Source: Thermotoga sp. (GTDB lineage: Bacteria > Thermotogota > Thermotogae > Mesoaciditogales > Mesoaciditogaceae). From it: a stretch of DNA of 64,000 nucleotides. The position numbers were made by a program, and so were the translations under genes. Shown here piece after piece: positions 5,314 through 43,601 of this stretch (positions are counted from its first letter, which is position 1; each line of letters opens with the position of its first letter). Below the pieces are notes generated by a model. It had not been told where the DNA came from, did not search any database, and saw nothing but the letters and a program-made list of their open reading frames with translations. The DNA is taken from contig DYLQ01000005.1 of assembly GCA_020722015.1 (NCBI GenBank), positions 8,453 to 72,452 of the forward strand. The letters are read 5' to 3'.

Positions 5314-5464
5314 TATACTTAATCAAGTTTAAAAATGAAGTCATTTGACTTCAGCAAATGCCTTTCGGTGTCTGGTCCTCGCTTCGCTGCGGAGGCCACC
5401 TGCAAGGCAATTTGCTCTCCGTCAAATTTAATTATATTTCGATTCTGAAAAAGATTTAGTATAC
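5314..5464. repeat. ~150-bp TATA-bounded palindromic interspersed element, copy A (putative MITE)
   Basis: Reverse complement of copies at 35518 and 40471 with 2 substitutions in the ~94-bp core; ends TATACTTAA... and ...TTTAGTATA. Confidence 0.9.
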
Positions 5465-5509
5465 TTAATCAACTTTAAAAGTTAAGCCAATTCTGTTATA
5501 ATCTGCAAG

Positions 5510-17768: not shown

Positions 17769-17917
17769 TATACTAAATCTTTTTTAAAAGCCGGCATAAT
17801 AAATTCAAATTTGGCAGGTTGCAAGTGGCAGGTGGCTTGTGGTCTTTCATTCTCGACTTGAGGGAACCCTATCTGATAAGGTCAAATGACTTCGTTTTTT
17901 AAAGTTGGTTTAGTATA
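17769..17917. repeat. ~150-bp TATA-bounded element, copy D (conserved arms, diverged core)
   Basis: TATACTAAATCTTTTTTAAAAG left arm and GTCAAATGACTTC...TTTTAAAGTTGGTTTAGTATA right arm match copy B; interior only partly alignable. Confidence 0.8.
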
Positions 17918-25787: not shown

Positions 25788-26902
25788 TGAAAGATTTTGT
25801 TCTCATTGTAGGATCTGGTCTTGCAGGGGCAACTTCGGCAAGAATTATCGCAGAGTCCGGCTTTAGGGTTTTTGTCGTTGAAAAGCTTAACCATATTGCC
25901 GGACATGCTTACGATGAATTCAACGAAGATGGGATTTTAGTTCATACCTATGGCCCACACATTTTTCACACCAAAGATAAATCTGTCTTCGATTTTCTAA
26001 GCAGGTTCACATCGTGGAATTATTACCAGCACAGAGTTTTAAGTTACGTAGACGGTATGTACGTTCCGTTTCCCATCAACAGAGACACGATTTCTCAGAT
26101 ATTTGGAATAAAACTTTCGATAGAAGATGTCGATAATTTCCTCGATAACGAGGTTAAAAATTCAAAATTTGCGAATCCTCCGATCAACTTTGAAGATGCC
26201 GTTGTTTCTCAAATAGGCAGAAGACTTTACGAAAAATTTTTCATGAATTACACAAGAAAACAATGGAACAGAGTACCATCGGAACTTTCTCCCGAAATTG
26301 CGAAGAGAATTCCCACAAGATCCAATCGTGACGGAAGATATTTTTCAGATACTTATCAAGGTCTTCCCCTTCACGGGTACACAAAAATGATTGAAAAAAT
26401 GCTTGATCATCCCAACATATCGGTTTTAACGAATTGCGATTATTTTGAAATAAAACCCGAGTTAAAACCAATTATGACCGTTTACACTGGTAAATTGGAC
26501 GATTTTTTTGGGAAAATTCATGGAGATCTCGAGTACAGATCTCTTAAACTTGATTTTAAAACGTATCGTCAGGAATACTACCAACCCGTTTCGGTTGTGA
26601 ACTATCCGAATGATTATGATTGGACAAGGATAACGGAATTCAAACACATGACTGGGCAGAAATCAGATCTTACAACTGTCTGTTACGAGTACCCAATTGA
26701 TAGCGGTGAACCTTATTACGTTGTTATGACGGAAGAAAATATGAAAAAAAGGGCACTTTACATGAAAGAGGTTGAAAAGATCGAAGAATACGGAGAGCAC
26801 CTATTTATCGGCAGACTTGCCGAATACAAATACTACAACATGGACGAAGTTGTCGCAAGGAGTTTTCAAAAAACAGAAGAATGGCTAAGGAGGAAAAAAT
26901 GA
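25787..26902 (+). CDS. glf: UDP-galactopyranose mutase
   Basis: GSGLAG, HTYGPHIFHT, YTRKQW, RYFSDTYQGLP, GRLAEYKYYNMD. Confidence 0.95.
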   Translation: MKDFVLIVGSGLAGATSARIIAESGFRVFVVEKLNHIAGHAYDEFNEDGILVHTYGPHIFHTKDKSVFDFLSRFTSWNYYQHRVLSYVDGMYVPFPINRDTISQIFGIKLSIEDVDNFLDNEVKNSKFANPPINFEDAVVSQIGRRLYEKFFMNYTRKQWNRVPSELSPEIAKRIPTRSNRDGRYFSDTYQGLPLHGYTKMIEKMLDHPNISVLTNCDYFEIKPELKPIMTVYTGKLDDFFGKIHGDLEYRSLKLDFKTYRQEYYQPVSVVNYPNDYDWTRITEFKHMTGQKSDLTTVCYEYPIDSGEPYYVVMTEENMKKRALYMKEVEKIEEYGEHLFIGRLAEYKYYNMDEVVARSFQKTEEWLRRKK

Positions 26903-35517: not shown

Positions 35518-35671
35518 TATATTCTAAATCTTTTTTAAAGCCAACATGTAAATTCAAATTTGACGGAGAGCAAATTGCCTTGCAGGTGGCCTCCGCAGCG
35601 AAGCGAGGACCAGACACCGAAAGGTAATTGCTGAAGTCAAATGACTTCACTTTTAAAGTTGGTTCAGTATA
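35518..35671. repeat. ~150-bp TATA-bounded element, copy B
   Basis: 35556-35649 identical to 40506-40599. Confidence 0.92.
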
Positions 35672-39225: not shown

Positions 39226-40444
39226 ACACCTGCCTTCCGTTAACGTACGTCGCTATAACCTTGCCGTTCAAATTCTTGTTTAAAAATGGTGTGTTTGAAG
39301 ATTTCGATAGAATCGTATTTCTCGAGACATTCCACTTTTGATTTGGATCGAAGATGACGAAATTTGCCGGCAATCCTTTTTCTATTCGTCCTTCGTTCAA
39401 CTTGTATAATTTTGCCGGATCTGATGTAACCTTTTTTAAAAGTAACTCGGTTTTCACGCCTCTTTGAGAGACGATGAGGATCTCGTTCAGAAGTGTTTCG
39501 AATCCAATGATTCCGAATGGAGCAGATTGAAATTCCACTTCTTTTTCTTCAGACGTGTAAGGTGCATGATCCGTTATTATCGCATCTATTGTTCCATCTT
39601 CAAGACCTTCATAAAGTGCGATCTGATCTTCTGCCGTCGGGAAAGGAGGATTTATCTTTTTCGAGGTATCGTAGTCGTTAAGATCCTTGTCTGTAAAGAC
39701 AAGATGATGAATGCACACATCACATGTGATCTTTATCCCGTCTTTTTTTGCCTGTCTTATGAGTTTTACGGATCTCGCCGTTGATACATGGGCTATATGC
39801 ACATGAGCCTTCGTCAGGTAAGACAGCTCTATTTCTCTCGATACCGCTATCGATTCTGCGACATCCGGCATGGCATATATTCCGTAAAGTGTCGAATACC
39901 ATCCTTCTCTCATATGGCCTGTTCCGAGATCTTTATCCTGACAGTGAGAAATTATCGGAAGATCAAGCTCATACGCGTATTCCATTGCATGACGGGCAAG
40001 AAAAGCGTCCGTCAGGAAATTCCCATCGTCTGAAAATCCAACAACTCCTGCACGTGCCATTCTGTGCATTTCTGTAAGTTCTTTCCCTTCTCTTCCTTTC
40101 GTTATTGCACCGACAATTTTAACGTTTGCCTTTGCGTATTTTGCTTTTTCTTTCACGTATAGAACCATTGTTTCGTTGTCTATTGCCGGATTCGTGTTCG
40201 GCATGGCAAAAACAGTCGTTATACCGCCGTGAACCGCAGATTGTGTGCCGGAGAGGAGATCTTCCCTTTTCGTTTGACCCGGATCTCTCAGGTGTGCGTG
40301 TGTGTCTATAAGACCGGGCAATACCCAAAGACCGTCGAGGTTTAATTTTCCCCCATCTTCTTGTGCTTCAAAACGTTCGTTAAAGGCAAAAGATCCGTTG
40401 TAAAATCTTTCTCCATCGAAAATATTTGCGTTATCAAAGATCAT
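39179..40444 (-). CDS. pyrC: dihydroorotase (type I)
   Basis: PGLIDTHAHLRDPG, MPNTNP, FSDDG, HIAHVST, TDHAP, SKSSNTPF. Confidence 0.95.
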   Translation of the reverse strand: MIFDNANIFDGERFYNGSFAFNERFEAQEDGGKLNLDGLWVLPGLIDTHAHLRDPGQTKREDLLSGTQSAVHGGITTVFAMPNTNPAIDNETMVLYVKEKAKYAKANVKIVGAITKGREGKELTEMHRMARAGVVGFSDDGNFLTDAFLARHAMEYAYELDLPIISHCQDKDLGTGHMREGWYSTLYGIYAMPDVAESIAVSREIELSYLTKAHVHIAHVSTARSVKLIRQAKKDGIKITCDVCIHHLVFTDKDLNDYDTSKKINPPFPTAEDQIALYEGLEDGTIDAIITDHAPYTSEEKEVEFQSAPFGIIGFETLLNEILIVSQRGVKTELLLKKVTSDPAKLYKLNEGRIEKGLPANFVIFDPNQKWNVSRNTILSKSSNTPFLNKNLNGKVIATYVNGRQVYGNVESLEKRVLHLA

Positions 40445-40470
40445 TCATAAACACCTCCGAGCATTTGATT

Positions 40471-40621
40471 TATACTAAACACTTTTCAAAATTGAAATAT
40501 AATTTAAATTTGACGGAGAGCAAATTGCCTTGCAGGTGGCCTCCGCAGCGAAGCGAGGACCAGACACCGAAAGGTAATTGCTGAAGTCAAATGACTTCAT
40601 TTTTAAAGTTGATTAGGTATA
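40471..40621. repeat. ~150-bp TATA-bounded element, copy C, overlapping the last codons of pyrB
   Basis: TATACTAAAC...GATTAGGTATA; core identical to copy B; arms closest to copy A. Confidence 0.92.
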
Positions 40622-42533: not shown

Positions 42534-43601
42534 ATGAAAAAATTATGGTATATAGTTCAAACTTACGCCGGTCTGGAAGAAACGGTAAAAGAATCAATAG
42601 AACAAAAAAGAGATCAAATGAATCTTTTCGATTTCGTAGGCAGGGTCTTTATACCACAAGAAAAAGTTGTGGATATGAAAAGTGGTCCCGTTGAAAAGAT
42701 AAGAGTTCCTTCGACGGCCAAGTTTCATGTTAATTCAGGTGAAGATATTGTCAAGGATCAGATGATAGCAGAACTTTCTGAAGTTCATGTAAAGCATGGT
42801 GGAAAGGTCATCGAAGTTAAGAACATGAGAAAACTTGTTATAGAGTCCATCGATCGAAAAAATAGCAGAACTTATTACATTCCCGCTGCTACGGGTATAG
42901 AAAGCGGCATAAGATTGGGTGCCAAATTGATTGAGGGAATGCCGATTGCAAAAGATAAATCTATTTTTTGTGAGATTGATGGTAAGGTTGTTCAAAACGA
43001 TCGTATCAAAAAAGTTGTAGTCCATCCAGAAGATGGTGAAGAAGATGACTTTTATTTTGTCCCACTTGAGTGCTTTAACAGATCCGTAAAAGTCAACAAA
43101 TCAATACATGCTGGAGATAAAATAGCGGATAAAAAGATATTCACATCTCCGACTTCGGGTATAGTTGAGATAGACGTCTTCGGTGCTTACAAAGAAATTA
43201 AAATATCCAAAGTTATATCCAAGAGGCTTTTCCCAGGTTATGTTTTTGTTGAAATGTTCATGAATGAGGAAAGTTGGGAAATAATTAAAAATACCGAACA
43301 TGTGATAAATTTCGTTTCAAATGCCGGACAACCTATTCCTCTCAAGGCGAAAGATGAAAAATTGATCTCGAGTTTGATGATTGAGAAAAAGAGTTCTAAG
43401 ACTACAGAAGAGGTAAAAGTTAACATAAACCTTGAAATCGGAGAACGTGTTAAAATAAAAAGCGGGCCTTTTGAAGGTTTTGCAGGTACAGTTAAAGAGG
43501 TAAGACCTGATAAAAAAGAGGTAACCGTTATGGTTACGATCTTCGGAAGAGAAACTCCCGTAGTTTTAAATGTTTCCGAAGTTGAGAAAGCAGTTTCATA
43601 A
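42534..43601 (+). CDS. nusG: transcription factor NusG with a large central insertion
   Basis: WYIVQTYAGLE, LFPGYVFVEM, KOW GERVKIKSGPFEGF, VTIFGRETPV. Confidence 0.95.
   Translation: MKKLWYIVQTYAGLEETVKESIEQKRDQMNLFDFVGRVFIPQEKVVDMKSGPVEKIRVPSTAKFHVNSGEDIVKDQMIAELSEVHVKHGGKVIEVKNMRKLVIESIDRKNSRTYYIPAATGIESGIRLGAKLIEGMPIAKDKSIFCEIDGKVVQNDRIKKVVVHPEDGEEDDFYFVPLECFNRSVKVNKSIHAGDKIADKKIFTSPTSGIVEIDVFGAYKEIKISKVISKRLFPGYVFVEMFMNEESWEIIKNTEHVINFVSNAGQPIPLKAKDEKLISSLMIEKKSSKTTEEVKVNINLEIGERVKIKSGPFEGFAGTVKEVRPDKKEVTVMVTIFGRETPVVLNVSEVEKAVS

Follow-up and report, generated by a model that had tools for sequence, protein, structure and literature searches.

A nonautonomous, IS630-derived MITE has very probably inserted, recently and in this lineage only, into the TTA codon for Leu297 of pyrB; the insertion was most likely tolerated and would have left the downstream gene, pyrC, to be initiated independently. 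The site lies in a 64,000-nucleotide stretch of DNA (the window, to which positions refer unless a contig is named) from a 1.93-Mb draft genome of 166 contigs. The copy at pyrB is designated copy C. The original prediction held that an insertion at a coding TA had replaced the native tail of PyrB, and the empty sites of relatives show this directly. The features of the junction and the other copies of the element in the window are collected in Table 1.

PyrB orthologues were located in 30 relatives, and seven genomes were then chosen for alignment of the pyrB 3' end and the DNA downstream of it. The compared relatives were Athalassotoga (Mesoaciditogaceae, Thermotogota), as judged by the organism names on the matched contigs. 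An exact 149-column gap was present at the TA site of pyrB in all seven of these genomes of the same genus or family, and the same gap was also seen in alignments to the sequences L068, L002, and L003. L068 is a Logan contig from a closer relative, reached via a protein database, with a PyrB that is 89% identical; its site is empty, and its called pyrB and pyrC genes overlap by 4 nt. A scan of metagenomes for the joined flanks returned no empty allele of the same species and only two contigs, both from other species (∼80% identity) and both with an empty site. At least nine related sequences lack exactly the 149 bp at the site of copy C.

The empty sites read GCTTTGT-TA-AATCAAATGCT.GGAGGTG...GAATGATC; in the seven genomes, GCTTTGT-TA-AATCAAATGCTTGGAGGTGTTGTCGAATGATC is translated as R-M-A-L-L-N-Q-M-L-G-G-V-V-E-stop. 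Comparison of empty and filled sites revealed a target duplication, with TTGT-TA-AATC in the former and TTGT-TA-[147 bp, TAC...GTA]-TA-AATC in the latter, and the net gain at pyrB was 149 bp including the duplicated TA. Joining the flanks of copy C gave a perfect match to the empty-site orthologue with a single TA (alignment to L068, L002, and L003). Copy C very probably transposed into the TA of the TTA codon, 30 nt before the native stop. A 100% identical twin of copy C is present elsewhere in the genome (C30:56998-57148), and because of this identity and because the remains of the native tail can still be read as an unbroken frame, the insertion appears to be recent.

The same insertion junction was found in a JGI metagenome contig (3300000227; L067), which shows 3 differences from the window in 6,924 bp and encodes an identical 307-aa PyrB. 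Two of the three differences (window positions 40546 and 40566) fall in the core of copy C and could be due to population variation or to consensus bleed-through from other copies during assembly. This contig provides a second assembly of the allele; however, it may have been drawn from the same sample as the genome and would then give no independent proof against misassembly. Both junctions of copy C are continuous in the two assemblies, with unique sequence on either side.

Table 1. Positions of the pyrB-pyrC junction features and of the MITE copies in the window
Feature	Position	Strand	Basis or remark
pyrC, type I dihydroorotase, 421 aa	39179..40444	-	TIGR00857, 388 bits; ATG formerly overlapped pyrB TGA (ATGA)
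Relic of native pyrB 3' end, AAT CAA ATG CTC GGA GGT GTT TAT GAA TGA = NQMLGGVYE*	40441..40470	-	Alignment to relatives
MITE copy C, 151 bp with both flanking TA (net insertion, 149 bp)	40471..40621	-	Gap versus relatives
TA duplication, downstream copy	40471..40472	-	Empty/filled alignments
Copy C right arm/TIR (...TTTCAATTTTGAAAAGTGTTTAGTATA)	40471..40511	-	Alignment with other copies and IS630 end
77-nt G+C-rich core fold-back (GACTTCAGC...GGTCCTCGC-TTCGCT-GCGGAGGCC...CTCCGTC)	40512..40588	-	Folding
pyrB, aspartate carbamoyltransferase catalytic chain, 307 aa	40587..41510	-	NF002032, 380 bits; start as in homologues
New pyrB stop TGA	40587..40589	-	Inside small arm hairpin TGAAGTCA-TT-TGACTTCA (40582-40599)
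Element-encoded tail YLINFKNEVI, residues 298-307 of 307	40590..40619	-	Left arm/TIR; translation
TA duplication, upstream copy, inside pyrB codon TTA	40620..40621	-	Empty/filled alignments
MITE copy A, 93% identical to C	5314..5463	+	Alignment
MITE copy D, same arms, different core	17769..17917	-	TIR matches C54:26221-26241 and 26333-26369
MITE copy B, left arm and core 96% identical to C, right arm diverged	35518..35671	-	Alignment

Next, the consequences for PyrB were examined. The protein scored well above the cutoff of the NCBIfam equivalog model NF002032 (263 bits), with profile positions 2 to 296 of 297 matched to residues 23 to 316 of the long open reading frame; by comparison with homologues, the true start is M17 of that frame. 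On the minus strand, the gene ends ...AGA ATG GCT TTG TTA TAC CTA ATC AAC TTT AAA AAT GAA GTC ATT TGA. The TATAC of the element starts at 40621, with T40621 and A40620 as bases 2 and 3 of the TTA codon (40622-40620). The reading proposed from the window, with the terminal TATA in the codons TTA-TAC and a tail of YLINFKNEVI closed by a stop at 40587, was confirmed. PyrB of the window therefore ends ...RMALL-YLINFKNEVI, compared with ...RMALL-NQMLGGVVE and 306 aa in relatives. It lacks the LGG motif and is of near-native length, and its tail by chance begins with the YL that is typical of the family. Native family tails consist of RMALL(N/H/D)(Q/H/L)(M/I)LGG plus three residues, the last being E or N; the tail consensus among 47 homologues is LLYLxLGG, and the LGG motif is conserved across Thermotogota. 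The tails of element-less relatives were NQMLGGVVE and LGG variants, not NFKNEVI. The native 3' end persists as an untranslated relic that holds the pyrC Shine-Dalgarno sequence (SD), GGAGGTG (40452-40458). Read-through back into the native tail was rejected, since the 149 nt are not divisible by 3 and the arm stops every sense frame within 35 nt.

An AlphaFold2 model of PyrB (47 homologues) had a mean pLDDT of 91, with a last helix spanning residues 282 to 301. YLIN was modeled as a continuation of this helix, and only residues 304 to 307 had a pLDDT below 50. In solved structures, the chain continues after the aligned ...RMA(L/V)(L/I) for 5 residues in the Aquifex ATCase (3d6n_B) and for ∼18 residues in Bacillus subtilis PyrB. 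The PyrB tail looks tolerant of change because these homologues differ in tail length. As modeled, the new tail would extend the last helix by ∼4 residues before becoming disordered, and PyrB would probably remain functional. Loss of an LGG motif that is conserved throughout Thermotogota may still carry some cost to the enzyme.

Copy C belongs to a repeat family. Copies A, B, and C align over their whole length, and the window has three occurrences of an 80-nt core at no more than 2 mismatches, compared with 0 in 100 shuffles. A blastn search of the genome yielded 69 matches, 15 of them full length; all 15 are bounded by TATAC...GTATA, and their flanks are unrelated. The element is noncoding, with stops in the three sense frames within 35 nt, and most copies are situated in gaps of a few to ∼100 nt between codirectional open reading frames. 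Immediately upstream of the window, a second open reading frame (C54:7057-7509, 150 codons) runs on into a MITE copy (C54:7502-7652) and ends ...TTA TAC TAA (...LY-stop), so that the MITE supplies its last residue(s) and stop. At window positions 5460 to 5492, a solo left arm abuts copy A and shares the terminal TATA with it, either as a nested or tandem insertion or as the remnant of a second copy. The repeat extends to another genus of Mesoaciditogaceae, represented by the uncultured Thermotogae genome SRR4023291_bin.3 (G013), with at least 10 full-length copies (for example, L035:176-328) that are ∼89 to 91% identical to those of the genome studied here; nine of them have the same score, whereas PyrB of that genome is only 73% identical. 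This contrast suggests recent bursts of the element and, possibly, horizontal spread. Copies at 71 to 78% identity are present in other members of the family Mesoaciditogaceae.

A likely parent was found in the complete genome of A. saccharophila by a Pfam DDE_3 search of relatives followed by an inverted-repeat scan. It is a 1,163-bp IS630-family IS (L070:1367-2529) encoding a 362-aa DDE_3 transposase (91 bits to PF13358), and its ends are TATACTAGTTCAAATTTAAAAGTGAA and (reverse complement) TATACTAAATCTCTTTTAAAAGTGAA. The MITE arms read TATAC(T/C)(T/A)AA(T/C)CAACTTTAAAA(A/G)TGAAG and (reverse complement) TATACTAAATCTTTTTCA(A/G)AAT, and alignment of the arm (TATACTAAACCAACTTTAAAAGTGAAG) with the IS terminus (TATACTAGTTCAAATTTAAAAGTGAA) showed a match over ∼25 to 29 nt. 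On three counts taken together (TA duplication, small size, and absence of an open reading frame), the family is classed as an IS630-derived MITE. In the draft assembly of the genome itself, which may hide one, no intact autonomous IS with ends matching the MITE was found. An internally deleted relic of the parent IS is present at C83:1248-1474 (IS nt 499-609 and 1114-1159; 81 to 83%), with a transposase remnant at 78% over 37 aa, and a left-end fragment of a parent-type IS runs off the contig end at C115:1497-1604. These pieces may represent steps on the way from IS to MITE, or they may point to an intact copy that was not assembled. Since the twin copies are identical, mobilization was probably recent, and an intact source probably exists or existed until recently. 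A complete IS630-family IS makes up the whole of the 1,059-bp contig C9, with its transposase split into open reading frames of 176 and 169 codons; it was rejected as the parent because its TIRs (TATAGTATCTCACCCTAAATCTTGGACAT) differ from the MITE arms.

The insertion also altered the relationship between pyrB and pyrC. In all compared relatives, the pyrB TGA overlaps the pyrC ATG (ATGA) and the pyrC SD lies inside pyrB. In contrast to this arrangement, which the coupled pyrB-pyrC pairs of Mesoaciditogaceae retain, the overlap in the window has been destroyed, and the pyrB stop has moved to a position 142 nt before the pyrC ATG. Copy C ends ...GTTTAGTATA at 40471, followed 12 nt on by GGAGGTG (40458-40452) and 7 nt further by the pyrC ATG (40444-40442); the SD, its spacing, and the start codon were unchanged by the insertion. 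A signal scan detected neither a sigma-70-like promoter nor an intrinsic terminator on the sense (minus) strand of copy C; its sole terminator-like hairpin (40582-40599) lies antisense to the operon, on the plus strand. Because the element carries neither terminator nor promoter on the sense strand, pyrB and pyrC are probably still cotranscribed. The next genes in the operon are pyrK, pyrD, and pyrF. Judging from the sequence of the junction, translation of pyrC probably begins by independent (de novo) initiation and no longer by termination-reinitiation coupling.

Accessibility of the pyrC SD was predicted with ViennaRNA. The SD was largely paired in both the filled and the joined-flank mRNAs, with an unpaired probability of 0.02 versus 0.07, respectively, at 37°C and of 0.2 both with and without the element at 55°C. 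Masking of the SD by the CUCUCCG of the element was therefore dropped as an explanation, given the equal values at 55°C. Loss of unwinding by ribosomes terminating on pyrB could, on this modeling, lower pyrC output. Among solved structures, PyrC is nearest to 3d6n_A, the DHOase chain of the Aquifex DHOase-ATCase complex; because of this closeness, by analogy, a stoichiometric PyrB-PyrC complex is plausible and coupling may be relevant. PyrB and PyrC of the window are both closest to chains of 3d6n. Also present in the window, on the plus strand (42534-43601), is a 355-aa NusG in which a 172-position profile was matched across residues 5 to 352; this spread implies that a large domain has been inserted, and the identical JGI gene carries the Pfam domain NusG_add.

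Could the filled site be something other than a recent, tolerated insertion? An element that is ancestral at this position and was precisely lost from the relatives is very improbable, as is a junction created by misassembly of a multicopy repeat. All other lineages examined, from several genera, have an empty site with an LGG tail shared with distant Thermotogota, and an ancestral element would thus require many independent, perfectly precise excisions. Misassembly is suggested by the fragmentation of the draft, by the frequency with which repeats give misjoins, and by the two JGI differences inside the element. However, the junctions are unbroken in two assemblies, the flanks are unique, and they join to a perfect single-TA empty-site orthologue. 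The presence of the same allele in a second assembly also speaks against a harmful insertion, whether polar on pyrC (and on pyrK, pyrD, and pyrF) or crippling to PyrB or the PyrB-PyrC complex, in an operon that is decaying. We regard this as unlikely, although the ATGA coupling and the conserved LGG are gone, the pyrC SD is mostly paired in the predicted folds, and balanced synthesis may matter if, like their nearest solved homologues (3d6n), the two proteins form a stoichiometric DHOase-ATCase complex. The flanking and downstream genes pyrB, pyrC, pyrK, pyrD, and pyrF are all intact and matched their profiles over the full length, predicted SD accessibility is equal with and without the element, and ATCase tails are naturally variable in length. 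The recent insertion was probably neutral or slightly harmful and not adaptive.

The folding of the element raises the question of a role in RNA. In Correia elements, the long TIR-TIR stem is a substrate of RNase III. By analogy with Correia and ERIC elements, the hairpin of copy C might form a boundary of mRNA processing or stability, through RNase III or RNase Y cleavage or protection of a 3' end, that uncouples the pyrB and pyrC message levels; we consider this quite improbable. Cleavage of Correia-containing transcripts by RNase III and ERIC-dependent mRNA decay are documented (reviewed in PMC10969869), and the whole element folds as one long imperfect fold-back, far better than shuffled sequences (z = −3.9). 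However, the opposite strand folds equally well, as expected of any palindromic DNA element, and the predicted fold-back is most simply a by-product of this palindromic build. In addition, ribosomes finishing pyrB read 35 nt into the left arm and should therefore melt the outer TIR-TIR stem, so that no more than the inner core hairpin could persist in the spacer. The core itself is 80 to 90% conserved in several genera and contexts, and two compensatory changes of stem pairs distinguish MITE-type from mosaic-type cores (A-U/G-C at 24:22 and A-U/U-A at 25:21), although these are no more than two events. One subfamily, moreover, has uncompensated changes in the 3' half (GCGCAGATCAGC), and the 5' half (TGTCTGGTCCTCGC) hardly varies; this pattern points to a sequence-specific site at least as much as to a stem. 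Relative to codirectional flanking genes, cores in the genome that contains the window were in the sense orientation 14 times and antisense 5 times (P = 0.06), a bias that was reversed in the loci of relatives (3 sense and 13 antisense; P = 0.02, with loci that are not fully independent). There is no coherent signal of an orientation-dependent RNA role. A covariance search of the region against Rfam 15 gave only chance-level matches (E = 3), far below the gathering scores.

Sister species (FK4.bin83, Athalassotoga sp. KM4364-07, and others) carry dozens of cores that lack the MITE arms and lie within mosaic intergenic repeats of short reiterated motifs, some of them in tandem units of ∼190 to 230 bp. 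Such arm-less loci include L031 (G001:C31:41800-42450), L061:1975-2280, L065:3768-4032, and ∼20 more. The motifs of the mosaic repeats are GTTAC/GTCAC, GCCAT/GCTAT, CTAAT, and GCTAC, together with a second hairpin (TTCCAGTCGAAGAACTGGAA). It is conceivable, and in our judgment unlikely, that the 77-nt core (TTCGGTGTCTGGTCCTCGC...GCGGAGGCCACCT) is an independent REP-like module, a protein-binding site or an RNA hairpin, that modulates mRNA decay or processing or the relative expression of cistrons. If so, the MITE would have brought a module that it shares with the mosaic repeats of Mesoaciditogaceae to operon junctions, pyrB-pyrC among them.

Bacterial IS630-type MITEs with TA duplications are well known and include the Correia elements of Neisseria, RUP of Streptococcus pneumoniae, and MITEEc1. 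The family described here resembles IS630/Tc1-mariner-derived MITEs in its size (∼150 bp), TA duplication, TATA-type termini, imperfect TIRs, and lack of an open reading frame; in its copy number (tens) and its usual location, in short gaps between the genes of operons; in its capacity for cotranscription and, as predicted, for folding back as RNA; and in the likeness of the copy C arms to those of a congeneric IS630-family IS. Unlike those elements, it is unrelated in sequence to Correia, RUP, and MITEEc1, and its central 77 nt form a separately conserved hairpin that is found without arms in sister species. Also described are repeat elements by which protein genes are lengthened at the 3' end, among them the enterobacterial RU/ERIC, pneumococcal repeats, and Rickettsia RPEs (reviewed in Delihas 2011, PMC3184786). 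The ending of a second open reading frame (C54:7057-7509) inside a MITE copy parallels those cases. In contrast to them, the pyrB tail was replaced at near-equal length rather than merely extended, and the same event separated a gene pair with overlapping stop and start codons. A literature search found no description of a MITE in Mesoaciditogales or Mesoaciditogaceae.

The kind of event is thus already known and involves no new mechanism. What the junction offers is a clean and datable case in which a MITE rewrote the C-terminus of a housekeeping enzyme and broke a stop/start overlap in one step, with the ancestral pyrB-pyrC state preserved in many relatives. For a thermoacidophilic lineage that branches deeply within Thermotogota, it also documents a previously undescribed family of IS630-type MITEs and the probable parent IS. 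For the ATCase-DHOase pair, the insertion is a natural test of how much weight translational coupling and the conserved LGG tail carry.
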